Positions 10,199 through 32,184 of a DNA stretch of 50,786 bases are shown here, piece by piece (within the stretch, counting starts at the first letter, position 1; each line of letters opens with the position of its first letter). This stretch comes from a virus (Duplodnaviria > Caudoviricetes), in IMG/VR virus record IMGVR_UViG_3300030099_004693, positions 1 through 50,786 of that record; one strand, written 5' to 3'. Position numbers and translations under genes: made by a program. The notes under the pieces were generated by a model. The model saw only the letters and a program-made list of their open reading frames with translations. It was not told where the DNA came from and made no database searches.

Positions 10199-10597
10199 AT
10201 CTATGCCACGGGGTTGATTTACGGGTCGTGGGGGTCAACTTTCGTTGAAACTTGTATTTGTGTTGCCCCCAGCACGACCATCACTCATAATCTCAACCAA
10301 CTAGCTGTATACTACAAATACTTGCTGTTTGTTTAGGCATTTGTGCTTGTGCTTGTGGTTGGTTGAGAGTTATTCATTGCGTACAATCGTATTGTATTAT
10401 ACCTTTTTACTACACATACTGGTATAATACAACTTGTTGTGTCAACCCTCGCTTTACTTATATCAAGCCTAATATTCGCTGTTTTACACTACCTTTATTA
10501 CTACTCTAATCACTACCATCGGTAGTGTAAAAGTATGCTAGCATACCACGAATATTAGTTTGATATAAGTATGCGCTCGTTGTCCCTAGGCATAGAT
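10199..10597 (+). ncRNA. Candidate ~400-nt multi-domain structured RNA (or ssDNA) element
   Basis: Nested stems 10199-207/10589-597, 10210-218/10441-449, 10224-230/10273-279, 10291-303/10356-368, 10392-403/10421-432, 10456-466/10560-570, 10469-478/10549-558, 10482-493/10521-532; most non-Watson-Crick positions within arms are G-U on the + strand. Confidence 0.55.
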
Positions 10598-13061: not shown

Positions 13062-13086
13062 TGTATCCTGATAAGTAAATAATAAT

Positions 13087-13178
13087 TAAGGGGGACAATA
13101 AGCCAAGTAGTTCTAGTGGATATAGGTGGTGTTCACCGAACACAGAAACTAGACATAGACATCGGTGAGTCCCCCTTA
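13087..13178 (+). promoter_or_regulatory. Structured intergenic element with possible pseudoknot
   Basis: TAAGGGGGAC/GTCCCCCTTA closing stem, TCACCGA/TCGGTGA, crossing TCTAGT/ACTAGA. Confidence 0.5.
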
Positions 13179-13195
13179 TAAAATAAAGGAGAATT

Positions 13196-15779: not shown

Positions 15780-16441
15780 ACATGAGAAGCGAAGGCTTAG
15801 TAAACACTTTGCATGAATATACTTTTCATATATTAGGTTGCGGAGCTATTGGTAGTTCTGCAGCTACTCAGTTACTAAGATGTGGTGCTAAAAACTTTGT
15901 ATTATACGATATGGATAAAGTAGCAACAGAAAACATCGGCGTATCTCAGTATATGGATGAGCATATTGGCATGTTAAAAACTGAAGCATTAGAAGAACAT
16001 CTGATGAGTATTAATTGTAGGAACGTAGAAATAATACAATCACCAGAATACTTTAACATGTTTCGATATCAAAATAATAATGACATTGTAATATTAGGTT
16101 TTGATAGTATGAAATCTAGAAAACATGCAGTTCAAGAAATATGTTCAAATAAACAAACTAAACCATTCTTGTTGATAGATGGTAGGATGGGCGGTGAACA
16201 TTACCAACAATATTTGTTTAAAGACTTGACACTAAATAAATATCTAAAAACATGGTATTCTGACGAAGATGGTGATGCAGAGCCATGTAATGTCAAAGCA
16301 ACAAGTTATTGCTCAAATATGGCAGGTAGTATGATTGTAAACGCTATTAGAAAGGTAGTTACAGATAGTCCTTACGAAACAATGTTGACTTTTAACTTCC
16401 CTACAATGACAATACAAAAAAATACTTGTTTCCCAGCCTGA
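15770..16441 (+). CDS. ThiF/MoeB/E1-like adenylyltransferase
   Basis: GCGAIGS, DMDKV..EN, G..K..AL, FDS...R, IDGRMG, candidate catalytic C173 (EPCN). Confidence 0.92.
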   Translation: MGINMRSEGLVNTLHEYTFHILGCGAIGSSAATQLLRCGAKNFVLYDMDKVATENIGVSQYMDEHIGMLKTEALEEHLMSINCRNVEIIQSPEYFNMFRYQNNNDIVILGFDSMKSRKHAVQEICSNKQTKPFLLIDGRMGGEHYQQYLFKDLTLNKYLKTWYSDEDGDAEPCNVKATSYCSNMAGSMIVNAIRKVVTDSPYETMLTFNFPTMTIQKNTCFPA

Positions 16442-16454
16442 CAATTAGTAAATT
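16426..16454 (+). promoter_or_regulatory. Possible sigma70-like promoter for the replication module
   Basis: TTGTTT-17 nt-TAAATT with an upstream A-tract. Confidence 0.35.
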
Positions 16455-16490
16455 GATAGCTCGTCTTCAATCTCTGAAGGCGAGTTATCG
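16454..16490 (+). promoter_or_regulatory. 16-bp hairpin after the E1 gene
   Basis: TGATAGCTCGTCTTCA-ATCTC-TGAAGGCGAGTTATCG, three G-U pairs. Confidence 0.55.
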
Positions 16491-16515
16491 TTATCGTAAA
16501 TAAGGAAAAAACACA

Positions 16516-17190
16516 ATGAAACTAACAAAAGAAAAAAGGAAAGCTATTTCTGTAAATCCTTCTACTTTATTATTGTATGGAGCACCTAAAGTTGGTAAAA
16601 CTACCATGCTATCTAATTTAGATGATTGTCTAATAATAGATACAGAAAAAGGTAGTCGTATGATTGAAGGTTACATACAAGAAGTAAATAGTAGAGATGA
16701 GTTAATTGAAACATTAATAGCTATTAAAGAAAGTAAAGATGTAAAGTATAAATATATAGCTATTGATACAATTGATAAAGTCGCAGAATGGGCTGAACGC
16801 AGAGTATGCGAAGAAGAAGGTGTGAACTCTATTGCTGATTTAGCATTTGGTAAAGGTTATGGACTTGTACGTGAAAAAGTAGCTAAAACTATTTCACATT
16901 TCAAAGAAGTAGCAGAACATCTTATCATCATTGGACATAGAAAAGTAGCGTATGCAGTAACAGAAGGTAACCCTATAGTAATACCAGAATCTCTTGATTT
17001 AACAGGTAAACTAAAAAATGTTATCATGGCTGGTTGTGATGCTATTGGATATGTATATCGTGATGACAAAGAAAACCTAATGGTGTCTTTTAAAGCTAAT
17101 GATAGCATAGAAGCAGGTAGTAGATGTCCTCATTTAAAGGGTAAAGAAGTTAAATTTGAATGGAAAAATATATATAAGGAGGCTAAATAA
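16516..17190 (+). CDS. AAA_24/Sak4-like P-loop ATPase (ssDNA annealing/recombination)
   Basis: LLYGAPKVGKTT, IIDTEKG, IAIDT, FGKGY, IIIGH. Confidence 0.85.
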   Translation: MKLTKEKRKAISVNPSTLLLYGAPKVGKTTMLSNLDDCLIIDTEKGSRMIEGYIQEVNSRDELIETLIAIKESKDVKYKYIAIDTIDKVAEWAERRVCEEEGVNSIADLAFGKGYGLVREKVAKTISHFKEVAEHLIIIGHRKVAYAVTEGNPIVIPESLDLTGKLKNVIMAGCDAIGYVYRDDKENLMVSFKANDSIEAGSRCPHLKGKEVKFEWKNIYKEAK

Positions 17191-17802
17191 ATGGCTATAT
17201 TCAAACCAGAAACAACAAGTGCAGGAACAGGGACTCCTAAGTCTTCATACTTAGGAGCAATAGAAGTGGGTACAGTAGGATTTAAAGATAGAAGTGGCGA
17301 CTTTCCAGGACAAGACTGGGCTGAGATATTTTTAGAAATAGAATTATCTGTCAAAGGTAGCGAATACACAAATAAAATGTCTTTATTAGGTAGATTAGAT
17401 AAAGATAGTGAAGGTAAAATAGTTGGAGGTAGTGTACTAAAAAGAATGTACAATATCTTTGATATGATTGGATTTAAAGGTGGTCTTACTATTGATAAAA
17501 AATGGGAAGACGAAAATGGCAATCAAATAACTAATATTGCAGAACATCTTAACAGCAACTTTAAAATGGATGGACAGGACTTTATTGCGTATGCATACAA
17601 AAAGAAGCCTAAAAAGCCAGGAGATAAAGTATATACAGAAATGTGGCCTAAACTATGGTTAAACACAGAAGGTGGCAGAATGCAGTGCGACAAAGATGTT
17701 AAATGGCTTAAAGAAAATGGTTATCTAAAGGAAGCTAGTCAAGATGATTTTGCTCCAAAAGGACAAACTAATTTAGCAGACAACGCATTAGCTAATCTAT
17801 GA
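17191..17802 (+). CDS. Putative ssDNA-binding protein
   Basis: Lies between the Sak4-like ATPase and primase; beta-rich; positional inference. Confidence 0.4.
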   Translation: MAIFKPETTSAGTGTPKSSYLGAIEVGTVGFKDRSGDFPGQDWAEIFLEIELSVKGSEYTNKMSLLGRLDKDSEGKIVGGSVLKRMYNIFDMIGFKGGLTIDKKWEDENGNQITNIAEHLNSNFKMDGQDFIAYAYKKKPKKPGDKVYTEMWPKLWLNTEGGRMQCDKDVKWLKENGYLKEASQDDFAPKGQTNLADNALANL

Positions 17803-19565
17803 AATACGTAGAGGTAGCAGTCGGAGGTCCTCATAACCGAGGAAATCTAGTTTTGCGTAGTGAGCTTGGCCATTATCTTCCTAAAGATGGAAGCCCACTA
17901 TATCGCTCTGTTTATCTCTACGGTGATGATGCAAAAGAATATGCTGATTCACATAGGACGTTAAAAGGCTATCACGGTAAGCGTGGTATTGATAATATAC
18001 TTATTGATATAGACAAAAAAGATAATTCAGATGAATACACACTAAAACAATTGCGTACTACTCTTCAACATCTAAATACCCTAGAAGTCCTAGATGAGAG
18101 TATACAATGCTATTTTAGTGGTACTGGTTATCATATCGTCATAACAAACAAAGTATTCAATTTCCAAGCTAGTGATAGCTTGCCCTATCAAGTAAAACAA
18201 ACCATGTCGAATCTGTTTGAAGATATTGACTCAAGTATCTACATGAGAAGTGGAATATATCGTGTGACACACACAAAAAACCAGAAAACAGGTTTATATA
18301 AAATACCTATTACACTACATGAAGCATACAACAAAACATATCAACAGATACACGAGATGGCTAAAGACCCACGCTTTGAGTACCCATATGAATTATTAGA
18401 TGGAGATTGTGAACTAGAAGGCTATATATGCCTAGATGTACCAAAAATACGTCAACAAGGCAAAGTTAGTGAACCTACGAAGGTAGTACCTTGTGTACAA
18501 ACAATGCTTAGGAATGGCCCAATACAAGGCTCTAGGCACAATACACTACTTAGGATAGCTAGTTATCTAAAAAGAAATGGAGTACCCAGCGACTATGCAA
18601 AAGTAATGATATTGCATTGGAATAACAATATGATGGATGAAGAAGCAGTCATACAAAAAATAGAATCTGTTTACAATGGAAACTATAGATACAGTTGTCA
18701 TGACTCAATTATGAAAGAACATTGTCAAACTAAATGTGTTTATTTCAAAAACAAAAACTATCATATCGATGTAAAAGATTCTGATACATTACAAAAAGAA
18801 TATGAAGAACGCTTAGAAACCAACTTCCAAGGTAGAACTGTACCTTTATCAGATATGTTTGGTTTAAAAGGATATGATACACAAATATATCCAGGCGAAC
18901 TTGTAACGATATTCGGTCCAACAGGGTCTAACAAAACTACACTCGCACAGAATCTTGCATTGGGTGTAGATTTTAAAAACGATAGAATAAACAAACAATG
19001 GCAAATACCAACATTGTTTTTATCACTAGAGTTATCAGCATGGTACATGCACAGACGTCATTTGCAAATAGTATCTGGTTTATCAAAAGAAGAAGTGAAT
19101 GCTAATTACAAAGAAGTATACAAGCGTCATTCTGATGAGCTACAACATCTACATATACAAACAGTTACACCAACACTAACATCAATACAAGACAAAATAA
19201 AAGAACTAAGTCCATATCTTGTAGTAGTTGATTATATAGATTTGGTAGATACACCAAAAGATGTTAAAGGAGAGTATGAACAAATTAAATACATATCTCA
19301 TAACTTATCTAATATGGCTGTTAATCTAGATGTTATTATTATACAAGTATCACAAGTTAGTAGAGAATACAGTAGAAATGAAGTTTTAGACCTGTATGCA
19401 GGTAAAGGTTCAGGTGCTATTGAGAATGCATCACGTAAAGTGATTGGTCTTAATGGACAGGCTGATTCTAATATAAAAGAAATTCATATGTACAAAAATA
19501 CTGACGGTGAATTATTTGACGTTGATGTAGAATGGAATGAAAGCTTTAGGTTAAGGAGAATATAA
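17799..19565 (+). CDS. AEP primase-polymerase fused to PriCT-like and SF4 (DnaB-like) helicase domains
   Basis: IDID, FSGTGYH, GSRHNTL, C..H..C..C cluster, Walker A GPTGSNKTT, VVVDYI, VSQVSR. Confidence 0.88.
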   Translation: MKYVEVAVGGPHNRGNLVLRSELGHYLPKDGSPLYRSVYLYGDDAKEYADSHRTLKGYHGKRGIDNILIDIDKKDNSDEYTLKQLRTTLQHLNTLEVLDESIQCYFSGTGYHIVITNKVFNFQASDSLPYQVKQTMSNLFEDIDSSIYMRSGIYRVTHTKNQKTGLYKIPITLHEAYNKTYQQIHEMAKDPRFEYPYELLDGDCELEGYICLDVPKIRQQGKVSEPTKVVPCVQTMLRNGPIQGSRHNTLLRIASYLKRNGVPSDYAKVMILHWNNNMMDEEAVIQKIESVYNGNYRYSCHDSIMKEHCQTKCVYFKNKNYHIDVKDSDTLQKEYEERLETNFQGRTVPLSDMFGLKGYDTQIYPGELVTIFGPTGSNKTTLAQNLALGVDFKNDRINKQWQIPTLFLSLELSAWYMHRRHLQIVSGLSKEEVNANYKEVYKRHSDELQHLHIQTVTPTLTSIQDKIKELSPYLVVVDYIDLVDTPKDVKGEYEQIKYISHNLSNMAVNLDVIIIQVSQVSREYSRNEVLDLYAGKGSGAIENASRKVIGLNGQADSNIKEIHMYKNTDGELFDVDVEWNESFRLRRI

Positions 19566-19765
19566 TGGGATGGTTTATAGCAATAATACTAGACGATAAT
19601 TTAGCTATGATAGAGTTATTTAAAGCGTTTAGAATAGGCGTAGCATGGATTAATGATGAAACAGGTAAAGCATCATCATTAATTTTAGGGCTATGGAAAC
19701 TAGAAACAAATTTTACATTAGCTGTGCGAAAAAAGTTAGGATGGCATGAAACAGGACAAGCGTAA
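19565..19765 (+). CDS. Hypothetical protein
   Basis: TAATG coupling, AAGGAG RBS. Confidence 0.65.
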   Translation: MGWFIAIILDDNLAMIELFKAFRIGVAWINDETGKASSLILGLWKLETNFTLAVRKKLGWHETGQA

Positions 19766-20222
19766 AATTACTAGTAGAATGAAGTTTTGGGAGGACAAGT
19801 TCCTCCCAAAGCTTAAAAAACATCATGGAAACAGAAGTAAAGGTGTATTTCATCGTTTAATGAAAAAGTCATCTACACTGCGAACTTCACTAAAAAGAAG
19901 GAGCAGAGAATATGAAGTATTATTTGATATTAGCCTTAAAGAAATACGCGAGCTTATCTTATTGGCGTACGGAAAACAATGTAAATATTGCAAAGAAATA
20001 CTTAAAGTTAACAATATGGTTTGTGACCACACTAATCCTATTAGCCACGGCGGAGATTCTATCAAAACAAATCTTCAAATGATATGTGCACGTTGCAATA
20101 CCAGAAAAGGCCCTTTAACAGATAAAGTATATAAAAAGTTATTAGGCTGGTTAAAAAGACAAAACAAAAATTCAAGAGATTATATATTAAGAAAACTTGC
20201 TAGAAGCGATGTATTTAAATAA
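19746..20222 (+). CDS. HNH endonuclease
   Basis: CKYC...DH..P...GG....NLQ..CARCN..KG. Confidence 0.9.
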   Translation: MKQDKRKITSRMKFWEDKFLPKLKKHHGNRSKGVFHRLMKKSSTLRTSLKRRSREYEVLFDISLKEIRELILLAYGKQCKYCKEILKVNNMVCDHTNPISHGGDSIKTNLQMICARCNTRKGPLTDKVYKKLLGWLKRQNKNSRDYILRKLARSDVFK

Positions 20223-20312
20223 ATACTGGCTGGAAGTTGCAGTATAAAAACTCCAAGATGTTTTCGTATTTCTTTTTCATAGGTAACGGAAACTTTATTA
20301 GTCGAAAGAAAA

Positions 20313-20367
20313 CGGGGAGGGTCAAACAATTAACAGGAGCTGTTATAGTTTGGTGCAGCTCTCCCCG
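20313..20367 (+). promoter_or_regulatory. Intergenic hairpin before RBS
   Basis: CGGGGAGGGT/GCTCTCCCCG with inner CAAAC/GTTTG and TAACAG/CTGTTA. Confidence 0.55.
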
Positions 20368-20385
20368 CTCATATAAGGAAATATT

Positions 20386-20640
20386 ATGATATTATTTGGA
20401 ATGGTTATTAAATGTTATACAATACTTACTTTTATGACAATAACAGATGAGATATGGAACCTAAACAATCCACGTCCATATCCTGCAACAAAATATGAAT
20501 TAGCAAATTGGGAAGAAAAAGATTTTATTTTTTATACAAATGGAACATATGTATTAAGAAAAAAAAGAAAAGTGGACAACAAAACAAAAGCAGAAGCCAG
20601 GAGGTTATGGCATGAACGTCAAAATAAGCAAATTCGATAG
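20386..20640 (+). CDS. Hypothetical protein
   Basis: AAGGA RBS; lies on the coding strand. Confidence 0.55.
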   Translation: MILFGMVIKCYTILTFMTITDEIWNLNNPRPYPATKYELANWEEKDFIFYTNGTYVLRKKRKVDNKTKAEARRLWHERQNKQIR

Positions 20641-20743
20641 AATCGGCATCAAACTAAAAAGGTTGTTAGGATGGAAAATAAAAGACCTCGCTACAAGATA
20701 CAACGTAACGACAAGGACAATATATCGTGCGTTGAAAAAATAA
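20612..20743 (+). CDS. 43-aa helix-turn-helix DNA-binding protein (not in ORF track)
   Basis: AGGAGG RBS; MNVKISKFDRIGIKLKRLLGWKIKDLATRYNVTTRTIYRALKK matches HTH consensus G....LA..Y.V...TIYR.L. Confidence 0.8.
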   Translation: MNVKISKFDRIGIKLKRLLGWKIKDLATRYNVTTRTIYRALKK

Positions 20744-20809
20744 TAAAACATCAAGAAAATCTGTTTAATCTAACATTTAGAAATGGCAGATGGATAAGGA
20801 GATATAACA

Positions 20810-21040
20810 ATGGACTTAAAAAAAATAAAAAAGTCAACAAAAAAGACAACTCTAGTAAACCTGTCATCAGAACAAAGAGATGCAGGAAGAACGCTTTCAA
20901 AACCAAAAACATCAACAGTAGATAGACGTACAAAAGCTATTAAAAAAGCTGCTAATGGATGTTGGTGGATAGAAACATATTTAAATGGCGTATATACTTG
21001 GAGAGCTAAAGAACAAATGAATGGAGTAGATGATGAGTAA
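20810..21040 (+). CDS. Basic hypothetical protein
   Basis: AAGGAG RBS. Confidence 0.65.
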   Translation: MDLKKIKKSTKKTTLVNLSSEQRDAGRTLSKPKTSTVDRRTKAIKKAANGCWWIETYLNGVYTWRAKEQMNGVDDE

Positions 21041-21419
21041 ATTCTACGATATTGATTTGCCTTTCGGAATAAAATATGAAGGTACATTATCAGAATTATT
21101 GACAGCAGATACAAACAGGTTAATTGAAGTCAAAACAGAACGTAATAAATGGAAAGAGACAGGCAATATATTTGTAGAATTTGTATGGCGTGGGACCTTG
21201 AGTGGCATAACGACTACCAAGGCTGATTGGTGGGCAACAATACTAACCCTAGAGGAGGAGATACAAGGGATAATATTGTTGCCTACTAATATAATGAAAG
21301 CCAAAGTTAAAAAATTAATAAACGAAGGGATAGCTAGTTATCCAGTAAAAGGTGGTGATGACAATGCTAGTGAAGGTGCGTTAGTACCTATAAAGGAGTT
21401 AATGAATTATGAAGGATAA
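21030..21419 (+). CDS. PD-(D/E)XK-family nuclease-like protein
   Basis: IEVKTER..W..TGNIFVE...SGI.TT.ADWW. Confidence 0.7.
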   Translation: MMSKFYDIDLPFGIKYEGTLSELLTADTNRLIEVKTERNKWKETGNIFVEFVWRGTLSGITTTKADWWATILTLEEEIQGIILLPTNIMKAKVKKLINEGIASYPVKGGDDNASEGALVPIKELMNYEG

Positions 21420-22143
21420 AATAGAACTATACAAAGAAAGCTTAGACATCAGAAGACATGAATCAGGAGATAGGTGGTATGCGCCAGTTGGTTCTTACAA
21501 TTGGAAACCTTCAGTTACTACTATTATAGGTGGTACATTAAATAAAGGTAAGGGTTTTGAGCAATGGTTAGGTAATCATCCCAGCTACAAAATTGCGTGT
21601 GAAGAACGTGATAAAGCAGCAGATAGAGGAACGCTTGTTCATGACCTTGCAGAAAAATATATGCATGGTGAATCTGTTGAAGCAGAAGATGAAGAAATAT
21701 GTAAACATCTTATGTCATTTGAAAAATTTTGGAGAGATAATGAAATACAAATGATTGACACAGAATTGTTTATGTGGCACAAAGATGTGCCGTGGGCAGG
21801 TACTTGTGATATAATAGCTAAAATGAATGGTAAATATGCTATTATAGACATTAAAACAGGAGGCTATTATAAGTCTCATGAAATACAGCTAAATATGTAT
21901 GCTGAACTGTTATCTAAAATAACAGGAGAAGAAATAGGTATATTAGCAGGATTGTACACCAAAGGTAAATGGATAAGAGAACCTAACTATCAATTAAAAA
22001 AGTTTAAGTTTAACTTAGACATAGCTATGTCTGTTGATAGTGTATGGAGATTCTTAAATGGTGGCAATCCAAAACCAAAAATAAAAGCAAAACTAAAAAC
22101 TACATTTCAGATAGGAGGTAAAGATGAGTATGAGTTTTTATAG
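21409..22143 (+). CDS. PD-(D/E)XK exonuclease (lambda-exo/Cas4-like superfamily)
   Basis: PSVTTI, RGTLVH..AE, AGTCD, IIDIKT, QL..YA. Confidence 0.85.
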   Translation: MKDKIELYKESLDIRRHESGDRWYAPVGSYNWKPSVTTIIGGTLNKGKGFEQWLGNHPSYKIACEERDKAADRGTLVHDLAEKYMHGESVEAEDEEICKHLMSFEKFWRDNEIQMIDTELFMWHKDVPWAGTCDIIAKMNGKYAIIDIKTGGYYKSHEIQLNMYAELLSKITGEEIGILAGLYTKGKWIREPNYQLKKFKFNLDIAMSVDSVWRFLNGGNPKPKIKAKLKTTFQIGGKDEYEFL

Positions 22144-22375
22144 AGATAAAATACAAAAACTACAACAAATGTTAGATAATAAAGATGAAGAAATAAAACG
22201 ATTAACTAATGAATTATTTCTTTGCCAAGAAACAAAACAAACAAAATCTGTTGCAATAACAAAAGGCAATTCAACGCAAACACCATTAGTTGAGTTTGAA
22301 AACAGTAACGTAGCTACAATATTAAAAGGTCGATTAAAAGCTATGAAAATGTACACGGAGAAAAGAGATGAGTAA
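22124..22375 (+). CDS. Coiled-coil hypothetical protein
   Basis: GGAGG RBS; overlaps neighbours. Confidence 0.6.
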   Translation: MSMSFYRDKIQKLQQMLDNKDEEIKRLTNELFLCQETKQTKSVAITKGNSTQTPLVEFENSNVATILKGRLKAMKMYTEKRDE

Positions 22376-22619
22376 TGCAAAATACAAAAACATTGGTAAA
22401 AAACAAATAATCAATGTTATTAATCAAACAATACAAAAAGTTGAAGCAACAGAAATGACAATTAATCTATTGCTTATGAAGTTAGACGAAGATAAAATAC
22501 TATCACAAGAATCATTTCATGCATTTATGAAAGAAAAGTTAGGAGGTCTTGATGAAACACAAGGAAATGAAGAATCTAATGGAAAAGAAGATTCTACCGC
22601 AGATAACAAAGACTCGTGA
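22368..22619 (+). CDS. Hypothetical protein
   Basis: GGAG RBS; coupled to neighbours. Confidence 0.6.
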   Translation: MSNAKYKNIGKKQIINVINQTIQKVEATEMTINLLLMKLDEDKILSQESFHAFMKEKLGGLDETQGNEESNGKEDSTADNKDS

Positions 22620-22869
22620 CTCAGGGCAGAAAGAATACGCTCATGATGAAGATAATGTATTTGCTAACTTCGAAAGAGTAGCAGAATCCTGCAATATATC
22701 CAGAGAACAAGCTCTTTGGGTATATGCATCAAAACACTTTGATGGAATATCTGCTTATGTTAAAGGATATAAAAGTCAAAGAGAAGATGTACGTGGTAGA
22801 TTAACAGACCTTACAGTATACTTATGGTTGTTGTGGGGTATGATAGAAGAATCAGAAAGTAAGTCCTGA
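22549..22869 (+). CDS. All-alpha nucleotide-modification-associated/MazG-like-fold protein
   Basis: KEYA...VFANFERVA...KH...RL.DL..Y pattern. Confidence 0.45.
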   Translation: MMKHKEMKNLMEKKILPQITKTRDSGQKEYAHDEDNVFANFERVAESCNISREQALWVYASKHFDGISAYVKGYKSQREDVRGRLTDLTVYLWLLWGMIEESESKS

Positions 22870-25800
22870 CCCAGGTGTTGGGACTTTTCTTTCTTCACCT
22901 TCTCTTAATTCTTTGGACGCTCTACTTAATCCTATTAATGGTATGCCTGTCCATTTATCTACAAGTGACATTGGGTTTTCTATTAAATTGTTTTGAGCAA
23001 CAAAATCTCTAGATATTCTTCCAAATGGATACATAGTGTGTATGTAATAGTTAGCTACTCGTTCCCAATCATCTTCTAATACAGCTCTCATAGATGCCAT
23101 TGGCAGTCTTGCTATTGGTGGAGTAATTAGTTGTAATGGTGCAATTGGCTGTGGCCATTGCCCAAAAAATGCTCTTTTCTTATCTTTTTCATCACCAAAC
23201 AACCATTCACTAGTATCCTGCATCCAGTTCCATGGCGATGGCATTGCAGTATCAAATAATGAATATGCAAAAGCATTACCTAATGAAAATACAAATAGGT
23301 CTAATTGCATTATTCTTGCCACACGTTCTGCTTCTTTACCTTTAAAACCATATAATCTAGCTTGTCTTAATGCTTCTCTTCTAAAACGTATAGCATTCCA
23401 GCCCCAAAGCTGGAAACGTGTCATTACTTTACCTAATGCTGTTCTAGCAAACATAGGTCTAAATGGAGCAGAATATAAAAACTGAGTAGATTTAACTCCT
23501 TTCTTAGCTAAATCTATTAATATAGGGTGGTCAAACTCTCTAATAGCACCATTGAATTTTTTATACCAAAATAAATAATGTGCCATAAATGCATCTCTTC
23601 TTAATGCTCTTTCTGGTACAGACATAAACTTAGCTGCTAATTCTGTAACAGGTCTTGTGATACCCTTTTCTTTACCTAAATCTAAAACAGATTCACTAGA
23701 TAAATTAGGGTCACGTTTAAGTTTACGTGCAACAAGTTCAATAAACTCTTTATTACGAGATGATTGATATTCTGTTGCTAAACCATATTCCTCAAGTAAT
23801 TGCTCAGGCAATACGCCTTGTTTAATTACAAACGCTTCTCTAGCTTCTTTAGATGCAAACTTATCACTAAGTGCAGCCATATATTTATTGTTTCTAGCAT
23901 CCATCCAAGTCTTCATACCAACAGATTGTACAGTATGCATAGTACCACCAAAAATATTAGCAACAACAGACTTAGGATGTGCTAATAACGATGCTAACTC
24001 AAACTTAGCTTCTAGGTTACTCCAGTTACGTACATCATTTAAATCTAAACCTCTAAGTTCTTCAGGTAATTCTTTCTTAATTAATCCTAATTTGTCTCCT
24101 ATTTTATTAAGTCTATCTTTAACTCTATTATCAGCCCACCATCCATAAGGTGTACCTTTTATTTTCATGTTAGGATTTTCATAAACATACTCAGGGACAA
24201 CATCAGGATTGCCTATAGCGCCTTGCACATAAAGTTTTAAGAATGTAGACCACGATTCTTTAATGTTTTCTGGTACTTTTCTATCAAACATTGACTGTTC
24301 AAACTTAGATATAGTATCTCTTGCAAGTATTTGAGCCCATTGTTTGTAATATGTATTGTTTAAACTTTTACCATAGCCTGTGGGAACCTGTATGTCTAAT
24401 GAATATCCAGGTATATGACCTTCTCTACTAAGCTGAGAACCAGTTTTCTTTATATCTTGCAACCAACTTATACGTTCTTCTTTTTTTTGTTTACGTTTGC
24501 CTATATTTTCTAAACTTTTATTAAATCCTTCCCAAGTATTAATAGCTTCAAACATATAATCACCAGTTAATGCGTGATGTCTGTATGTTAATTTAGTTAT
24601 TAACTTATCTTGTTCTTTAGCATCTAAACTGCTTTTGCGTATATATTTTACATATTCTTTAAGTGCGTTAAGTGCGGTTTTTTTACTAAAATGATTATGT
24701 GGAAAATACATTTCTTCTGATATTCTACCAGTTCTAGATGGAAATGTTTCATACATTTTTTTCAATTCTTTTTTCTTTAGTTTTTTAGTATTAGTAGCTA
24801 TTTCATATTTCATTGACCTAGCTATAGTATTTATACCATCAATACCAAATTCTGTCGGTATTTTTTTGTTTTTAGCTACAGCTCTATTAAAATCGTTTAC
24901 AAGTTTTTCAAAGTTAATAATTGGATTTTGTTTAGTTTTAGGGTCGTAAAATCCTTTAACGTAGCCACTATTTTTAGGACCAGATGTAAATCCAGGAATA
25001 CCAAACTCTATAGCTTTTTGTAATGCATATAATGGTTGACCATCTGCAGTTGTTCCTATTACTTTTAAATTACCAGAAGAATCTTTAGGAACATTACCTT
25101 GTGCAATCTCTAATTCTTTTTTATAATATGCTGTTTCTTTATTGTTAATAATATCAACAATTTCAGAACCCTTTAACTTTTGCAGTTTTTTATCTATTTC
25201 AACAGTATAAACTTTATCTTTTAAATCAGTTTCGTATTTATGTTTTTTAGTAATTTCATTAAAAGCATCTGTATATGTCTTAGCGTGAAACATAGCAAGA
25301 GGTTTATCTTTTTTACTTACATCTGTTAAAATCTTTTCTGCCATAGGAAGTTCTCGTTTAACCATAGCTACTTCCCATAATTGTTTGCCTTCAGGTATAG
25401 CATCTAAAAACGTATATTCTTTTACTCGTTCTAAAGATAACTGTTCATTGGCTGCATCTGCTGCATCTAACACGCTTTTAATTCTATATTGAGTAATGTC
25501 TATGTACTGAGTAGGTAATATAGACTTACCAGTCTTCATACCTTCTGCTGTCATAAATATACCTTTCTTTTGCATCAGAACAATTTCATCTCGCATTAAT
25601 TCTTTATTAATAGTTTCAGGAAACTGTAAATATGTACGCTGTGATACTTTACTAATATCTTCACCTTTTAATCGTTGCCAAAAAGTACCAGTCTTAGTAT
25701 CTCTAAGCCAATTGCGAAGTACCATCCAGTCCTGTTTATTAAATATATTTATATCTTTGCCTACAACTTCACGTGCAATAAATCCAATGTTTTGTACTAC

Positions 25801-28800
25801 TTTATTGTTTTCTGTTTTTAAGTCCATTACAATGTCATCAATATAACCCTTAGTCTCAGCATCTAGTTTAGTTTTACCTTTAGCTTCTTTAACGCCTTCC
25901 CATCCAGTAGTAAATACTTCTGTTAGTTTAGCATCAGATTCCTCAGGCCACCCTTTTTCAATGCTTTCTTTTTTAGTAGGTTCTTCTAATAGTATAGTTC
26001 CTTCTCTTCGTATTTGTTCTGGTGCACGATGAGTAGATACTTCGTTGTATGTATTGTTTATTTCACCTAAAAACTTTCCAATAGAATTAGTTTCCATAGC
26101 TTCGCTGTTGTATCCCAACATAGATGATGACGTTCTTGCTGTATTTGTAAGCTCTGTATCATAGTCTTTTTGTTCCTTATTAGTTAAAGGTCTTTCTAGT
26201 TTAATTGCGTTTAGTTCTGCTAACTTTTCAAGATTACCACGATTCAATGAACCTAACATTAATGTATCAAACAATCTTTTTTCTATGTCAGTTCTATTAC
26301 GTTTCCATTTTCTTATCTCTGCATCAATAGCATTTTGGTCTTTAATCGATGAACCTTTAGACTTTCTTTGTCTACCAATATTTAGTTCAGTATCTAAACT
26401 ATTTCTATCATCTCTCATTAGATACGATTCTGCTTTTAATTTTTCTACTGTAGTATGCGCATCTTCTATCATTGCATTTACTTCAGCTTTTGTAATACCA
26501 GGAACTCTTTTCTTTACAACATCTATAATTTTTACAAGCTCTTGTACAGTCACCATTGTTTGTATATCTCTACCAGAAAAATCACCAGCTTGTTCTTTTA
26601 ATCGTTCTAATACAGCAATGCGTTCTTGTTCTGTGTAAAGTTTATTTTTTGCCTTTTTAAATGTAGCAAACTTAGTTCCTTTTATAACATCGTAAAACGT
26701 AGCTTTGTTTTTAGCAGCTGCAACTAATGCATCAGGGTTTAATAAATTGTATTTATACACTTTATTAATAATTGTAGGAGTAGGTGTTTTTAATGTTCTT
26801 CTTCCTAACATACCTTTTAAAGAACTATACTCAGCTACACTTTTGTTGTAGTTATTATATAAATCTGTTATTCTATCAAATTTTACTCTATTTAATGCGT
26901 GGTCAGAATAGTCTATATTATGTAACAGTCTAGCTATTTTAGGCGTCATAGTAGTAATATTCTTTGGGTCTTCAGCCATAAGTTCTGCTGTAAGATTCTT
27001 TCTGTCTTCCATAGTATATTGACGTTGATTTGTATAATCTTTGCCGTAGTATGCATTATTAGCTTTACTTAACATACCAATAACACCATTTTTATTAAAC
27101 TCTGAAACATTCAACTTAGCTAATGGCACTTTTGATTTAACAATAAAGTGAGCCTCTAATGCTTGTTTATACCAATTCTCATAGCCTTTAGGCTTACCAT
27201 AATCCATTGCATCTGATGAAAAACCAACCATAGCACGCATTAGTTTATTTGCGTAATCTATTTCTTGAGGTTTAGTTTTAGGGATAAGAGTTACTTTTAT
27301 ATCTTTACCAAAATGTTTAACAGTAAACTCGTCTTTACCTTTATTAAGTATCATTTGATATGCAGATGCCATAATGTTTTTAGGATTAACAGCAGCTCCA
27401 CCAAGAAGTCCTCTACCTTCTACAGCACCTTCTGATGCTTGATGTCGCATATTAGGCGCAAACATACCAGCCTGACTTTTAAATAACGCGTCTTCTCTTG
27501 GACTATATTCTTGTATAAGCTTTTTCTCAAATTCTTTAGCTTTGTTATCAGCTATTTTAAACCTACCATCTTTCTGTTTAACATAGAACTCTTGTTCTTG
27601 AGCTTCCATTACATCTTTATATTCTTTCTTTAAACCACCCTTACCACCAAAGTACATATACGCAGAATCAATATCAAGGTCAGCACCACCTAACGCTCTC
27701 ATCTTTAACCCATGCATTAGTATGCCATAGTCATTTCTTCCAGTAAACCCAGCAAACTGCAATATTTGTGTACCAGAGTTAGAATCTGCTGGAACTCTTA
27801 TAACTGCAGTCCTAAAAACCTCTTCTAGCCGTTTTTTAGCCGATTCTGGAGTACTTTTACTTAAGTACGTGCTATAGAGCTCTTCGAGTGTTTTCTTTCC
27901 ATATAGCTCTGTTTCAATAACTTTCTTTTTATGTTTGTCTCCAAGGAAAAATATTTTAGAATTTGTATTTAATTCTTTTAACCTAGGATTAACACCATCT
28001 AAATCTTTCTGTAATCCTTCATCATATGGTCTAATAATAGCTGCAGCAGAGTTTTTAACCTTTGGTTTAGTAACAGAGTTTACTATCCAACTAGACATCA
28101 TTTTATCTCTGTATTTGTTTATATCTGGATGCGTAAATATATTAGCTTCATTCTCTGGTTTACCACGTTTAATAGCGTCTTTACGTGCAGCTGCTATCAT
28201 TTTTTGTGCAACAGAATGGTAATACTCAACTTCCCTATTGTTTGCATCGTATTCTGCTTCTGTCATTACACCTTCGGCATACTCTTCTCTTATAGCAGAC
28301 TTTCTATTTAACAATAGATAGTTATAAAATGCCTTAGAAAACAATTGATTACCAGGTTGTTTCATAGCATCTGTTATACGTTCTAACCCAATAGCATCAA
28401 AATCTAGCTTATCTAGTTCTTTAGCTAATTGTTTATCTGATGCTGTAGGTAGTTTTTCTAAGTACGCATCTAATGCTTCATTAGCTTTTGCATCACCTTT
28501 AATACGTGGCTCCATAAAATCTTTAAATATACCATCAACTGCTTCTTTGACAGTAAAGCCATCTTTAGATGCTTTTTGAAATGCCATAGCTTCTACTAAA
28601 TTAGTAAGCATTTGTTTTTTAATACTCTGCGGTGCAATAAACTTTTTACTTTGCTTTATGCCTAAATCTTGTTTAATATGCGTAGGGTCTAAATCATATA
28701 CTTCATAAAACTCTCTTGTACCTTTTTGTTTAACAGCAGATGCCATAATATTCATATGTATACCAGCATCTTTCATTTCTGCTGATAACTTAGGTCCTGC

Positions 28801-31272
28801 TGGATGTATTGCATATTTACCAAGCAATGCACCGTGCTCAGCATTAGGCGATACTATTAATGATTTATTAGTACCAGATTCAGGCGTACCTTTTTCTAAA
28901 TTTAAAGCTCGTACAACATCATCTCTAGCTATAATAGCACCATCAAGATGTTCTTCTGTTTTAGTAGACTCTATGTCTGAAAACTTAGCAGCTTCTTTCA
29001 TTTTATCTTGTAATCGTTTAGGTAAGTTTTGACCAAAATCAGGTATAATATTATATCTAAAATTACCTTCTACTAAATCAGCTATGTGCCCAGGGCTTTG
29101 TTTGTTAGTAAAAAACTCTTTTTCAGCAGAATATGCATCTGTCATTAATAATGGCAGTCTTTTATTAAATGCTATTGCATTCTTTAAAAACCCATCGCCT
29201 TGCATTTTTTTAATATTAGCAGGTGTAAACTCTAAACCATTCATTTCTAACTGCCATAATACGTTAGATGCAAACCCTCTATCAAACTCAGCTTGAGTTA
29301 AATTGTATTTTTTCTTAAAATCATTTCTAAGCGCACGAATATCTGATGCTTTAAATTGAGATATAATAGTTCGCATGTTACCAGCTGTATTGCTTTTAGG
29401 ATGATGTTTCATAAAGTATAGTCTGTCTGCAGTACCTTTACCACCAAAATAACTATAACCTTTTTTATTCATTTCTTTTATAGTGCCGCCTACTAAATTA
29501 TAGTAATCTTTTGCACCACCATACTCTGCATACTCCATCTGTTTAAGTTTTTGTAATGATATTTCACGTTGACCATTTTCACCTTCTACAACTATATGGT
29601 CAAGAAACGTATGTGCACGTTCATCTTTGCCAGTTAACTTTTTCCATATTTGGTCAGCTATTTTTAATGGCTCTGTTAATATTTTTTTATTACCTGCTAA
29701 ATTCTTAGCATTCTGCTCTGTTAAAAAGTATATATTAGTACCATCTGTCGTAAGTACTTCTGTAACCTTATCGTTTTTATATCGAGTAATAAACTGTCTT
29801 ATATCACCTTCTGTACGCAATACTCTTTCTGGGTCTTTATTAGAATTTTTAATTTGATATTTATAGTCTTCTTGTAGCATTTCTTGTATTTTTCTAAATG
29901 CATCAGATGACTCGTTAGTCTTGGGACCTCTAACGTATTTGTCTAGTATATTAGACATTTTAGTTGTTATCTCAGCTGTCTGGTCTAATCTTTCTTGAGA
30001 TGTAATTTCTTTACCTTTAAAAAAATCAGGCATATCAAACCTAACTATGTTTTGAGCTTTATTGCCTATCTTTGGGTCTATAGTAGGTTCTACGCCTACA
30101 TTACTTTCTTCTGTGCTACCAGTCTCAAATACTTCTTTTTCTTTCTCTACTATCTTAGTAGGCTCAGTTTTAACCTCTACTTTAGGTACACCCTCTTGCT
30201 CTAATAATTTTTCTGTTTCTATATTTAATTGTTTTTGTAATTCATTGGCAGCTGTTCGTTGCACCTGTTCTTCTACAGTTCCTCTAGTTTGATTAAACTG
30301 AGTAATTACTTCTTTTTGTACTTCAGGCGGTAATTTACTAAACTCAGGATGTCTAGCAGGGTCATATATTTCAACCAATGCTTCGTTACCAGGTTTTTGT
30401 GCATCTTTTTCATATTTTTGTGAAAACTTTTGTGCTTTAGCTACAGTCCATGGTCGTTCTTGTCCTCCAAACCAAGCACCCATAACATATTCATAAACTT
30501 GCTCAGGTGTAGTTGCACCTCTCATAGTAGCAGGTAATCCCATAAACAATGAACCTGCTAATGTTTTAGCTACTTTATTACCAGCTTCACTTCCAGTATT
30601 AACAAAGTTACCTATACTTCTAAATACACCACCAGCTTGCGCGCCACCTACAAATGCAGCCATCATTTCATCGACACCACCTTGCCAAGCTGATGCTGCT
30701 GATGCTGCTCCTAAATGAAATGCACCTTCAGCTATATGTCTAGCTCTTTCACCTAATATAAAATTACTAGCAGTTCTTACTGCATCATTTTTAGCCAGTC
30801 TACCTTGATTTAAAAATGGTTTAACAATTTTTTTTGTTTGTTTAGTTGCAAAATTAGCCACAGCCATAGGAACAGACTTGTTGTTTAATGAACGAGCAGT
30901 ATTAGCTGCTGTCATAAGAGATGTAGTTTTAAGTCCTAACTTAGCAGATACTTTAGCAGCAGCACCTAATGGCGCTCCTATAATACCAGGTGCAAACCCA
31001 GCTAAATGACCTAGGTTTTTAAAAATTGCTTCGTATTCGTTGTCTGGAGTGTCGCCTACTTTTAATGTAGTAAAACCTTCTATAAACCCCGAGCCAAGGT
31101 CTGTTAATGCATCAGATATACTAAATTCACCGCTATAAAAAGGTATGTTGTGATAATCAGCGTGTTGCTGTATTGTGTCTTTGAGGTTTGCATAAGCGTC
31201 TGGATTCTTTTTATAAGAATCAATTAATGTTCTTACAGTACGCTCATCCAATCGTGGTTGGAACTCAGCCAT
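22852..31272 (-). CDS. Giant ejection protein with double-psi-beta-barrel (crAss-like) virion RNA polymerase
   Basis: RVP...FAGF...GGA-D1198-L-D-I-D1202 catalytic-like loop; upstream LLGKY and S845-AVK; Gly/Ala-rich N-terminus; last gene of the ejection cluster. Confidence 0.75.
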   Translation of the reverse strand: MAEFQPRLDERTVRTLIDSYKKNPDAYANLKDTIQQHADYHNIPFYSGEFSISDALTDLGSGFIEGFTTLKVGDTPDNEYEAIFKNLGHLAGFAPGIIGAPLGAAAKVSAKLGLKTTSLMTAANTARSLNNKSVPMAVANFATKQTKKIVKPFLNQGRLAKNDAVRTASNFILGERARHIAEGAFHLGAASAASAWQGGVDEMMAAFVGGAQAGGVFRSIGNFVNTGSEAGNKVAKTLAGSLFMGLPATMRGATTPEQVYEYVMGAWFGGQERPWTVAKAQKFSQKYEKDAQKPGNEALVEIYDPARHPEFSKLPPEVQKEVITQFNQTRGTVEEQVQRTAANELQKQLNIETEKLLEQEGVPKVEVKTEPTKIVEKEKEVFETGSTEESNVGVEPTIDPKIGNKAQNIVRFDMPDFFKGKEITSQERLDQTAEITTKMSNILDKYVRGPKTNESSDAFRKIQEMLQEDYKYQIKNSNKDPERVLRTEGDIRQFITRYKNDKVTEVLTTDGTNIYFLTEQNAKNLAGNKKILTEPLKIADQIWKKLTGKDERAHTFLDHIVVEGENGQREISLQKLKQMEYAEYGGAKDYYNLVGGTIKEMNKKGYSYFGGKGTADRLYFMKHHPKSNTAGNMRTIISQFKASDIRALRNDFKKKYNLTQAEFDRGFASNVLWQLEMNGLEFTPANIKKMQGDGFLKNAIAFNKRLPLLMTDAYSAEKEFFTNKQSPGHIADLVEGNFRYNIIPDFGQNLPKRLQDKMKEAAKFSDIESTKTEEHLDGAIIARDDVVRALNLEKGTPESGTNKSLIVSPNAEHGALLGKYAIHPAGPKLSAEMKDAGIHMNIMASAVKQKGTREFYEVYDLDPTHIKQDLGIKQSKKFIAPQSIKKQMLTNLVEAMAFQKASKDGFTVKEAVDGIFKDFMEPRIKGDAKANEALDAYLEKLPTASDKQLAKELDKLDFDAIGLERITDAMKQPGNQLFSKAFYNYLLLNRKSAIREEYAEGVMTEAEYDANNREVEYYHSVAQKMIAAARKDAIKRGKPENEANIFTHPDINKYRDKMMSSWIVNSVTKPKVKNSAAAIIRPYDEGLQKDLDGVNPRLKELNTNSKIFFLGDKHKKKVIETELYGKKTLEELYSTYLSKSTPESAKKRLEEVFRTAVIRVPADSNSGTQILQFAGFTGRNDYGILMHGLKMRALGGADLDIDSAYMYFGGKGGLKKEYKDVMEAQEQEFYVKQKDGRFKIADNKAKEFEKKLIQEYSPREDALFKSQAGMFAPNMRHQASEGAVEGRGLLGGAAVNPKNIMASAYQMILNKGKDEFTVKHFGKDIKVTLIPKTKPQEIDYANKLMRAMVGFSSDAMDYGKPKGYENWYKQALEAHFIVKSKVPLAKLNVSEFNKNGVIGMLSKANNAYYGKDYTNQRQYTMEDRKNLTAELMAEDPKNITTMTPKIARLLHNIDYSDHALNRVKFDRITDLYNNYNKSVAEYSSLKGMLGRRTLKTPTPTIINKVYKYNLLNPDALVAAAKNKATFYDVIKGTKFATFKKAKNKLYTEQERIAVLERLKEQAGDFSGRDIQTMVTVQELVKIIDVVKKRVPGITKAEVNAMIEDAHTTVEKLKAESYLMRDDRNSLDTELNIGRQRKSKGSSIKDQNAIDAEIRKWKRNRTDIEKRLFDTLMLGSLNRGNLEKLAELNAIKLERPLTNKEQKDYDTELTNTARTSSSMLGYNSEAMETNSIGKFLGEINNTYNEVSTHRAPEQIRREGTILLEEPTKKESIEKGWPEESDAKLTEVFTTGWEGVKEAKGKTKLDAETKGYIDDIVMDLKTENNKVVQNIGFIAREVVGKDINIFNKQDWMVLRNWLRDTKTGTFWQRLKGEDISKVSQRTYLQFPETINKELMRDEIVLMQKKGIFMTAEGMKTGKSILPTQYIDITQYRIKSVLDAADAANEQLSLERVKEYTFLDAIPEGKQLWEVAMVKRELPMAEKILTDVSKKDKPLAMFHAKTYTDAFNEITKKHKYETDLKDKVYTVEIDKKLQKLKGSEIVDIINNKETAYYKKELEIAQGNVPKDSSGNLKVIGTTADGQPLYALQKAIEFGIPGFTSGPKNSGYVKGFYDPKTKQNPIINFEKLVNDFNRAVAKNKKIPTEFGIDGINTIARSMKYEIATNTKKLKKKELKKMYETFPSRTGRISEEMYFPHNHFSKKTALNALKEYVKYIRKSSLDAKEQDKLITKLTYRHHALTGDYMFEAINTWEGFNKSLENIGKRKQKKEERISWLQDIKKTGSQLSREGHIPGYSLDIQVPTGYGKSLNNTYYKQWAQILARDTISKFEQSMFDRKVPENIKESWSTFLKLYVQGAIGNPDVVPEYVYENPNMKIKGTPYGWWADNRVKDRLNKIGDKLGLIKKELPEELRGLDLNDVRNWSNLEAKFELASLLAHPKSVVANIFGGTMHTVQSVGMKTWMDARNNKYMAALSDKFASKEAREAFVIKQGVLPEQLLEEYGLATEYQSSRNKEFIELVARKLKRDPNLSSESVLDLGKEKGITRPVTELAAKFMSVPERALRRDAFMAHYLFWYKKFNGAIREFDHPILIDLAKKGVKSTQFLYSAPFRPMFARTALGKVMTRFQLWGWNAIRFRREALRQARLYGFKGKEAERVARIMQLDLFVFSLGNAFAYSLFDTAMPSPWNWMQDTSEWLFGDEKDKKRAFFGQWPQPIAPLQLITPPIARLPMASMRAVLEDDWERVANYYIHTMYPFGRISRDFVAQNNLIENPMSLVDKWTGIPLIGLSRASKELREGEERKVPTPGSGLTF

Positions 31273-31275
31273 AAA

Positions 31276-32184
31276 TTATTCTTCTGTTGCAGTATTATAT
31301 AAGTCGTATAGTCCCATAGCAGTTAATCCACCATATCCAATGCCTTTAGCTATAGGATGAGGAACTTTAGATGTTAAACCTAGCAATCCTCTTATTCCTG
31401 CGGCAGTCATTAAACCGCCACCAAGGTACTCTCCTACTTCTCTGCCTGTTTCACCTGCTACTGCTTCACCTATTTCTGGTGCAACAGCGCTAGCAATTAA
31501 TGATGTTCCTACTTTAGGAGTTAATTTTCTAATATTTTTTACTCTAGCCTTAGCTTTAGACTTGGGTGTTTTCTTTTCACTAACATCTTCAAGTCCTAAT
31601 CTTTTTGCAATACCCTTTGATTTACCAGATAAAAGATATTCTCCACCTCTTAAAGCACCATAAGTCCCAAGTCCTGTACTTATAGGGTTTTCTGAAACAA
31701 ATTCTGATGCTCTTGAAAGTAAACTTTCATCTTCATCTAATGGCATAAATGATTTAATAGCAGCTGCTTGTTGCAGTCCTTCAGGAGTCTGCGTAGCTTC
31801 TGCATCGCTAATCATGTCTAGTAAATTATTGTATAAGTCTGGGGTGTCTTTTACTATCTTACGTATATCTTTTGCTTCATAGCCTCTATTAGCAAGATTT
31901 TGTAATCCTTTTAAAGTATTTTGTTCTTTGGCTGCAACTACTGAGTTATAGTATTGTTCAAATAATCCCAGGTCTTGAGGAGATAGCCTGCCGCCTTTAA
32001 TTTGCACATACTGATTCCAAATTTCTGTTTTTGATGGCAACGGCATAGAATCGCCTTTGTATACAGGTGTATCGCCACTAGTATCAAATACAGGGTCGTT
32101 GTTCATACCAAATTGCATCAAATTTGTAAAGAATTGATTTTCTGCGTTTTGTTGTCGTTGCGCTATAGCTTCACTTAATTTCAT
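31276..32184 (-). CDS. Putative internal virion/ejection protein
   Basis: Upstream of the giant gene; Gly-rich hydrophobic C-terminal segments. Confidence 0.55.
   Translation of the reverse strand: MKLSEAIAQRQQNAENQFFTNLMQFGMNNDPVFDTSGDTPVYKGDSMPLPSKTEIWNQYVQIKGGRLSPQDLGLFEQYYNSVVAAKEQNTLKGLQNLANRGYEAKDIRKIVKDTPDLYNNLLDMISDAEATQTPEGLQQAAAIKSFMPLDEDESLLSRASEFVSENPISTGLGTYGALRGGEYLLSGKSKGIAKRLGLEDVSEKKTPKSKAKARVKNIRKLTPKVGTSLIASAVAPEIGEAVAGETGREVGEYLGGGLMTAAGIRGLLGLTSKVPHPIAKGIGYGGLTAMGLYDLYNTATEE

Follow-up and report, generated by a model that had tools for sequence, protein, structure and literature searches.

The window analyzed here, the whole 50,786-nucleotide (nt) stretch of the complete IMG/VR virus record IMGVR_UViG_3300030099_004693 (Duplodnaviria; Caudoviricetes; CheckV 99%), carries a giant gene whose product of 2,806 amino acids (aa) displays the motifs of a two-barrel RNA polymerase (RNAP). 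A first-pass annotation had likened these motifs (SAVK, RVP, GF, and GGADLDID) to those of crAss-type virion RNAPs, and they lie exactly where it had placed them: SAVK at residues 845 to 848, RVP at 1159 to 1161, AGF at 1174 to 1176, and GGADLDID at 1195 to 1202, with the DNA coordinates re-checked (Table 1). D1198, D1200, and D1202 form the sole D.D.D of the protein. The succession R-x-P...S-G...G-F...H...G-G-A-D-x-D-x-D is shaped like the active-site barrel of beta-prime subunits, with its NADFDGD region. The ATG of the giant gene lies 3 nt past the stop codon of the upstream gene (31276-32184), and the giant gene has no Shine-Dalgarno site; the two features together suggest translational coupling. 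The protein also passes the [RK]xPx{20,100}DxDxD filter of PMC10770324 Supplementary Data 4.

Table 1. Features of the window, numbered from its first letter; residues are those of the giant protein
Feature	Coordinates	Strand	Remarks
Giant protein gene	22852..31272	-	Open reading frame (ORF) of 2,806 aa; last gene of the ~38-kb minus-strand structural/late block
N-terminal module, residues 1-300	30373..31272	-	Gly/Ala-rich; weakly hydrophobic at 87-108; no match in Pfam, PHROG, or NCBIfam
Predicted two-barrel RNAP core, residues 700-1400	27073..29175	-	AlphaFold2 model, Foldseek, VIA-align, BFVD
First (beta-like) double-psi beta-barrel region, residues ~716-870	28663..29127	-	Strands at model 80-170; invariant K803, K819, K848, R853
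SAVK, residues 845-848	28729..28740	-	K848 invariant
Helical connector between barrels, residues ~908-1068	28069..28551	-	Helices at model 209-369, ~160 residues
Second (beta-prime-like) double-psi beta-barrel region, residues ~1075-1240	27553..28050	-	Strands at model 376-541; carries DLDID
Catalytic segment RVPADSNSGTQILQFAGFTGRNDYGILMHGLKMRALGGADLDID, residues 1159-1202	27667..27798	-	Motif positions; conservation in both alignments
Putative metal-binding triad D1198/D1200/D1202	27667-27681	-	Within the catalytic segment
C-terminal module, residues 2280-2806	22855..24435	-	Most conserved part; predicted all-helical
Conserved 15-mer TTTTACTACACATAC	10405..10419	+	Intergenic region between the divergent blocks (9957-10570), before the plus-strand genes begin
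Small genes		-	Start of the minus-strand block
TerL	5851-7347	-	phrog_38
P22-like portal	3616-5835	-	PF16510, E 1e-68; phrog_156
Scaffold-position gene		-	Between portal and major capsid protein (MCP)
SU10-type MCP	1269-2612	-	Pfam SU10_MCP; phrog_1328
LamG protein and several genes without assignment		-	Beyond MCP, across the junction
Metallophosphoesterase, calcineurin-like	44513-45298	-	Inside the structural block
2,013-aa protein, then 903-aa tail-fibre protein		-	After the metallophosphoesterase
Methyltransferase and four genes without assignment		-	After the tail-fibre gene, before the giant gene
Plus-strand block	10571-22619	+	Small genes, then ThiF-like, Sak4, primase-helicase, HNH, PD-(D/E)XK exonuclease

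Motifs of this kind could be a chance resemblance in so large a protein. A bare DxDxD is indeed at chance level, with 0.46 expected in the giant protein (5.5% Asp) and one present in each of four further ORFs of the window. The extended motif is far above chance because its residues are invariant family-wide. A word-indexed search with residues 700 to 1400 found 54 clusters, all metagenomic, of 2,345 to 4,021 aa, none of which bears a functional name. Searching 1.84 billion representatives exhaustively with HMMER gave 320 matches with E≤1e-3, each representing a cluster at 50% identity, of which 81 reached E≤1e-30. In IMG/VR, relatives of the giant protein are encoded at no fewer than 203 loci. 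Across 54 full-length proteins aligned with MAFFT (P0001 and 53 others, with P0002 removed as identical), R1159, P1161, S1166, G1167, G1175, F1176, G1183, H1187, G1195-G1196-A1197-D1198, D1200, and D1202 are invariant in 54/54, as are K803, G814, K819, K848 (the K of SAVK), Q849, G851, R853, and K886 upstream. A second alignment of 63 fragments, using 62 of 80 fetched IMG/VR loci, agrees, and the three Asp residues are invariant in all 63. The significance of the extended motif is thus upheld, though the bare DxDxD is at chance, and with family-wide invariance joined by independent evidence from the fold we regard chance resemblance as already refuted. The core overall is merely 30 to 50% identical while the three Asp and about 20 nearby residues are invariant in both alignments, which indicates selection on catalysis. 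The ORF is uninterrupted, at 2,724 to 3,522 aa, in all 51 loci having both ORF ends among 56 examined.

Three-dimensional modeling of residues 700 to 1400 with AlphaFold2, from the 63-sequence family-only alignment and no templates, gave a mean predicted local distance difference test score (pLDDT) of 86.2 and a predicted template modeling score of 0.84. In this model, the core contains two double-psi beta-barrels (DPBBs) in one chain, with the catalytic triad on the beta-prime-like barrel. The annotation had called for such barrels around residues ~800 to 1210, and they are modeled at ~716 to 870 and ~1075 to 1240. An expansin DPBB chain aligns to model positions 17 to 171 (Z 5.0), and designed DPBBs and the natural VAT-N align to positions 374 to 527 (Z 5.8 to 6.5), all by VIA-align, an exhaustive structural aligner independent of Foldseek that we ran against 48,161 representative chains. 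The helical connector between the barrels is comparable to that of gp66 from phi14:2, a crAss-like phage, and of QDE-1, given as ~140 residues in 10.1101/2020.03.07.982082. The triad is located between strands of the second barrel, and a 39-residue helix follows the catalytic barrel (model 574 to 612, residues 1273 to 1311). The gp66 match covers chain residues 889 to 1742, including the gp66 bridge helix and trigger loop, as a region-level match only. In two-barrel RNAPs, as described in PMC7824862, the opposite barrel contributes basic residues to the active site. The invariant K803, K819, K848, and R853 are placed by the model in the first barrel region and may include such residues.

Structural searches with the model support the proposed relation to crAss gp66 and the RNA interference (RNAi) two-barrel RNAPs, both of which are among the top matches. 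Foldseek against PDB put phi14:2 gp66 (6vr4_A) first (E 1.1e-8), next QDE-1 entries (E 4e-6 to 9e-5) and maize RDR2, and then bacterial beta-prime chains (E ~1e-3 to 1e-2); of 17 matches at E≤0.001, every one among the matches listed was gp66, QDE-1, or RDR2. VIA-align ranks 1 to 18 are all two-barrel RNAPs: QDE-1 (Z 18.1, 432 residues aligned), ZmRDR2 (Z 14.7), P74-26 gp62 (Z 14.7), gp66 (Z 12.6; 512 residues, 3.6 Å, 15% identity, chain 889 to 1742), P23-45 gp96 (Z 11.7), and, at Z 7.3 to 9.3, Pol IV, I, II, and III and the vaccinia, archaeal, African swine fever virus, AR9, phiKZ, and mycobacterial RNAPs. In BFVD, a viral structure library, the two best matches (E 4e-45 and 2e-33) are family members without a name, and the next include crAss-like phage RNAP proteins (E 6e-12 to 2e-8), phi14:2 (2e-4), and P23-45 (6e-3). 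In light of the invariant motifs and the modeled fold, we read the giant gene, with a probability of roughly 70%, as encoding a multi-module virion protein in which residues ~716 to 1400 form a single-chain two-barrel DNA-dependent RNAP of the QDE-1/crAss gp66/P23-45 clade. The GGAD1198-L-D1200-I-D1202 loop of the beta-prime-like barrel would supply the Mg-binding triad.

The same fold could serve another substrate, as an RNA-dependent RNAP, a primase, or a PolD-like DNA polymerase filling in for a missing replicative one. No DNA polymerase was recognized with Pfam or PHROGs in the complete 50.7-kb genome, despite its primase-helicase, Sak4-like annealing protein, HNH, and exonuclease genes, and QDE-1, the best structural match, has both RNA- and DNA-dependent activity according to PMC9508822. 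PolD is also among the VIA-align matches, at Z 5.5, a value far under those of the RNAPs (11.7 to 18.1). Because the gene sits in the structural rather than the replication block and the top Foldseek match, gp66, is reported to be a DNA-dependent RNAP (10.1101/2020.03.07.982082), we consider such a substrate change quite unlikely and retain the DNA-dependent RNAP.

At the level of sequence, links to known RNAPs are marginal, yet they point in the same direction as the fold. An hhalign comparison of the 63-sequence profile with gp66 is not significant (E 0.18, probability 0.3), and it pairs RVP...GGADLDID with RIP...GSDFDID of gp66 (1313 to 1374). Of the 36 phage records that permissive tblastn reached, 27 are Bacteroides phages, 6 are uncultured, 1 is a Kehishuvirus, and 2 are others; among the matches listed, 15/15 are crAss-like genes labeled putative RNA polymerase, aligned with residues 1058 to 1208 at E 0.02 to 0.04. 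PF05183, the eukaryotic RNA-dependent RNA polymerase (RdRP) family, is matched by 2/63 members, with a best E of 8e-4. The giant protein drew no naming match in Pfam, PHROGs, NCBIfam, PDB phmmer, or PDB profile searches, and tblastn at E≤1e-3 against 50,697 phage records returned nothing for the whole protein or for a high-GC relative. No PHROG is common to the window polymerase and gp66, which itself matches no PHROG. We found no prior description of the family in the full-text literature or in the readable supplements of PMC10770324, a coverage outside which lie that paper's 23-family RNAP alignment archive and subscription journals.

Three conserved modules parted by variable linkers make up the giant protein. 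Per 100-aa block, mean identity to the query is 44 to 55% over residues 1 to 300, 45 to 50% over the barrels (800 to 900 and 1100 to 1200), and 47 to 61% over residues 2300 to 2800, with 19 to 27% in the 300 to 600 linker and 21 to 39% over residues 1500 to 2200. Hydropathy revealed two hydrophobic stretches, both weak, at 87 to 108 and 2651 to 2677. The N-terminal module may act in ejection or membrane contact and the C-terminal module in packaging or ejection. The latter has no PDB or meaningful Pfam match, its nearest Atlas clusters are viral hypothetical proteins, and its hhalign comparison with gp66 gave E 0.24. An Atlas lead from this module to LPD38 (score 0.95, 149 shared features) was weak and was set aside. 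Some homologues carry extra precomputed Pfam domains (PF12694 [cpYpsA/SLOG], PF13532, and PF25176 in P0005, P0047, P0027, and P0041); since only some do, accessory domains seem to be gained and lost, as in phage-delivered "polyvalent" proteins.

If the giant protein is such a virion polymerase, it would be made late and packed into the capsid via its conserved N- and/or C-terminal modules. Upon infection, the protein would be threaded through the portal and short tail along with the DNA, and once in the cell it would transcribe the first genes without the host polymerase, most likely the plus-strand block from ~10.4 to 10.6 kb; it might, in addition, assist in drawing the genome into the cell. 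We infer injection from gene position and architecture only. Hence an active two-barrel RNAP might instead stay unpackaged and be made in the cell for middle or late transcription, like P23-45 gp64 or the phiKZ non-virion RNAP, and since no second RNAP was recognized in the genome (Pfam, PHROGs), the enzyme could belong to any temporal class. We judge this unlikely: the gene is the last of a structural operon and encodes 2,806 aa with conserved nonpolymerase end modules, the matched nonvirion phage chains are far smaller (8f5m, 592 residues; AR9 7s00_d, 410; phiKZ 7ogp_A, 361), and a polymerase made only late could not begin its own expression. A separate and widespread phage lineage thus probably uses an injected-type two-barrel RNAP strategy. 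Virion-type single-chain two-barrel RNAPs are a kind of protein already known; the family, the domain architecture, and the phage lineage appear to be new.

Several observations weigh against a virion RNAP. No significant sequence match to any characterized RNAP was found (the PDB profile search was empty, and the gp66 comparison stayed at the hhalign value above). The AlphaFold2 model of the C-terminal module is of low confidence (pLDDT 59.7) and consists of helices only. The 15-mer TTTTACTACACATAC, the sole conserved upstream motif, is single-copy and present with at most one mismatch in 9/30 related records compared with 2/30 for the reversed control. Finally, the window copy has Ile at the fourth motif position, where 61/63 family members have Gly (DLDGD); DLDID occurs solely in the window copy and in its twin L002, which is 98% identical. 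According to 10.1101/2020.03.07.982082, the same Ile in gp66 accompanies a crystal conformation unable to bind Mg, and the Gly-to-Ile change is singled out as unique to the gp66 DFDID. That paper also reports gp66, with its DFDID, to be active as a DNA-dependent RNAP. The Ile shared by the window and phi14:2 looks like an independent recurrence. This change, together with end modules conserved as much as the core or more, would suit a structural or ejection protein with a dead polymerase relic. The invariance of the three Asp and about 20 residues in a core this divergent, along with the reported activity of a gp66 bearing the same Ile, makes a relic very unlikely, and we keep to an active virion RNAP.

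The 15-mer is common to the window and three relatives with polymerase cores 36 to 48% identical to that of the window, and as a candidate it might, speculatively, be an early promoter or another regulatory site. With up to three mismatches, it occurs at chance in the window (5 versus 4.2 expected), and scanning every viral contig for a 14-mer brought up mostly contigs of no relation to the window, as chance predicts for so short a word. An exact repeat search found no multicopy motif. A scan for sigma-70-like sites showed no enrichment of them in the early region (15 versus 18.0 ± 3.7 in shuffles); the missing excess fits host-independent early transcription without being evidence of it. A palindromic array (10011-10119) rich in TACTAGTA, with four overlapping copies of TACTACTAGTAGTACTACTAGTA and variants and 30-nt inverted arms, also lies in the divergent intergenic region that separates the late block from the replication block, and it may be an origin or operator. 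The stability of the array (10000-10125) as single-stranded DNA does not exceed that of shuffles (z -1.25); a GC-rich stretch at 10185-10300 likewise folds no better than shuffles (z -1.28), and Rfam gave no match in the intergenic region.

Gene order was read on a circular map, where the minus-strand genes form one block. Positions 1-98 of the window recur at 50687-50784 (99/100 identical over a 100-base end overlap), and an ORF running off the left end (3-560, minus strand) resumes at the right end. The record is classed as linear; because its ends overlap, it represents a 50,686-bp circle or terminal redundancy, and the genome closing at 50,686 bp bears out the compact phage described in the first-pass annotation. 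The P22-like portal that it had named was also recovered (Table 1). No tape-measure protein was recognized in the window with Pfam or PHROGs.

By the families of its TerL, portal, and MCP, the phage is placed outside the crAss-like phages, for which one genome, that of phi14:2, served as the comparison. The phi14:2 proteins match phrog_6681, 6547, and 11589, those of the window match phrog_38, 156, and 1328, and pairwise BLASTP between the two sets gave E 0.83, 0.73, and 0.73. Within a collection of 50,697 phage records, from which the window's own genome and very close neighbors of it may be missing, the nearest TerL is 26.7% identical, the MCP matches just four records at 24 to 27.5% identity, and no cultured member of the lineage was found. 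The genome thus does not fall within a described virion-RNAP phage group, and the first-pass suggestion of a different lineage stands. Membership among CRP-810-type roseophages, raised by a weak MCP match, was rejected; the accessible text of that paper describes no polymerase and other structural genes.

The lineage is coherent and uncultured, and every genome examined has the giant polymerase gene. TerL is 66 to 99% identical to that of the window in 29/29 related IMG/VR records checked (G001 to G029), and the polymerase cores of these TerL-matched relatives are 30 to 98% identical to the window's; in five of them, TerL is 72 to 92% and the core 36 to 48% identical. The polymerase thus evolves much faster than TerL in the same genomes, as has likewise been remarked for crAss-like RNAPs (PMC7886860). 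A high-GC relative, L084, is a 52.9-kb contig of 68% GC from a metagenome-assembled genome (MAG) labeled Bacteroidota; it encodes a 3,261-aa ORF with LGGADLDGDSAFF. That ORF carries GGADLDGD, and a TerL piece 44% identical to that of the window lies on the same contig. With this relative, the family spans ~32 to 68% GC and extends beyond the low-GC marine clade.

Compared with known systems, the giant protein resembles gp66 (PDB 6VR4) in its single chain with two DPBBs and a helical connector and in the R-x-P...G-x-D-x-D-I-D segment, down to the unusual Ile in the fourth motif position. The two genomes also have their elements in the same order: TerL is followed by the portal, the MCP, a set of tail genes that includes a metallophosphatase, and large virion proteins, with the polymerase at the end; the phi14:2 metallophosphatase (g075) has the same relative position, and the neighboring structural proteins have no sequence similarity (2,013-aa protein versus g067, BLASTP E 1.1). 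In contrast, gp66 has 2,180 aa rather than 2,806 and other N- and C-terminal modules, and phi14:2 has an unrelated TerL, portal, and MCP, twice the genome size, and few Shine-Dalgarno-led genes. Orthology of the gp66 type was not found at the sequence level (hhalign E 0.18; tblastn E 0.02 to 0.04 over 151 residues). QDE-1 and RDR2 (PF05183) share the single-chain two-barrel plan of the core, with QDE-1 the top VIA-align match, but are eukaryotic cellular proteins of ~1,000 to 1,400 aa, found outside virions, at 11 to 12% identity and with no PDB sequence or profile match. Thermus phage P23-45 gp96 and P74-26 gp62 (gp64 type, nonvirion) are two-barrel single-chain phage RNAPs like that of the window; no sequence similarity of the window protein to the P23-45 and P74-26 polymerases was found. 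The P23-45 gp96 is described as a polymerase within a giant virion protein needing tail passage; unlike the window protein, whose genome has a P22-like portal, it is fused to the tape-measure protein of a long-tailed phage. The closest parallel in layout comes from the N4 virion RNAP gp50 (Schitoviridae), a late-gene product of ~3,500 aa with N-terminal injection, central polymerase, and C-terminal encapsidation regions, in which the polymerase is a T7-like single-subunit enzyme (PMC5512222). The three-module layout is shared by analogy rather than homology, since the window's modeled core (residues 700 to 1400) is of the two-barrel kind.

Host range was approached through Shine-Dalgarno use, scored as 4-mer cores (GGAG/GAGG/AGGA) at -20 to -4 of long ORFs. 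Cores precede 19/38 long ORFs of the window (background 6.7%), and 5-mers precede 12/38 (background 1.3%); the corresponding counts are 3/33 and 0/33 for phi14:2, which has a Flavobacteriia host, and 14/37 and 4/37 for pelagiphage HTVC010P. Shine-Dalgarno translation in this phage, as the annotation had claimed, is therefore borne out, with the giant gene itself lacking a site, and enrichment is also seen in most relatives sampled. The difference between 19/38 and 3/33 favors a Shine-Dalgarno-using host and disfavors Bacteroidia. Among 185,579 species genomes, the only two matches are relatives of 23 to 25% identity on contigs of MAGs, one labeled Rhodothermales and the other (L084) Bacteroidota. 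These labels count against a non-Bacteroidota host, with binning as weak evidence. A different host phylum, as the annotation had proposed, is thus suggested by Shine-Dalgarno use, with the MAG labels of the two distant relatives pointing the other way. No tRNA gene is present in the window.

In the plus-strand block, the first large genes (13196-16441) encode proteins of 540, 322, and 223 aa. The 540-aa protein has no family match; the Atlas links it weakly to Prok-E2_D (score 0.81), and its gene is kept in relatives (541 to 558 aa). The 322-aa protein has a subthreshold JAB match, and the one of 223 aa resembles ThiF/E1. The three could constitute an E2/JAB/E1 ubiquitin-like conjugation triad. 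Two adjoining 89-aa genes (12478-12747 and 12792-13061) both open with ATGGCAAAC and are accompanied by duplicated upstream sequences, TTAATTyAACAGATAA...GATAACG, at 12431-12480 and 12744-12795; the pair appears to be a tandem duplication that includes the leader.

A bolder extension of the virion RNAP reading, which we hold to be unlikely, would make this lineage a third independent home of ejected two-barrel RNAPs, with non-Bacteroidota hosts (e.g., Proteobacteria that use Shine-Dalgarno sites, such as SAR11-like Alphaproteobacteria), a closer phage kin of the eukaryotic RNAi polymerases than gp66, and an enzyme that perhaps also primes or drives replication or genome entry. The closer kinship is proposed because QDE-1 scores Z 18.1 against 12.6 for gp66 and because of the subthreshold PF05183 matches; the role in replication or genome entry is proposed because no DNA polymerase was recognized. 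If true, this would provide a concrete donor lineage for the proposed phage origin of eukaryotic RdRPs.

Virion-delivered two-barrel RNAPs have so far been documented in crAss-like phages and in P23-45, as a tape-measure fusion. The same solution would now be present in a compact 45- to 56-kb lineage with a P22-like portal that is common in marine viromes, to judge by the IMG/VR loci and the 320 clusters, and whose polymerase is missed by Pfam, PHROGs, and NCBIfam. A large set of "hypothetical" giant genes would thereby be given a function, and the 700-residue core, being well predicted, is suited to direct expression and assay. The family would add a deep branch to the QDE-1/gp66 clade, which bears on how the eukaryotic RNAi polymerases arose, and host-independent early transcription may be far more widespread among small podophage-like viruses than has been thought.

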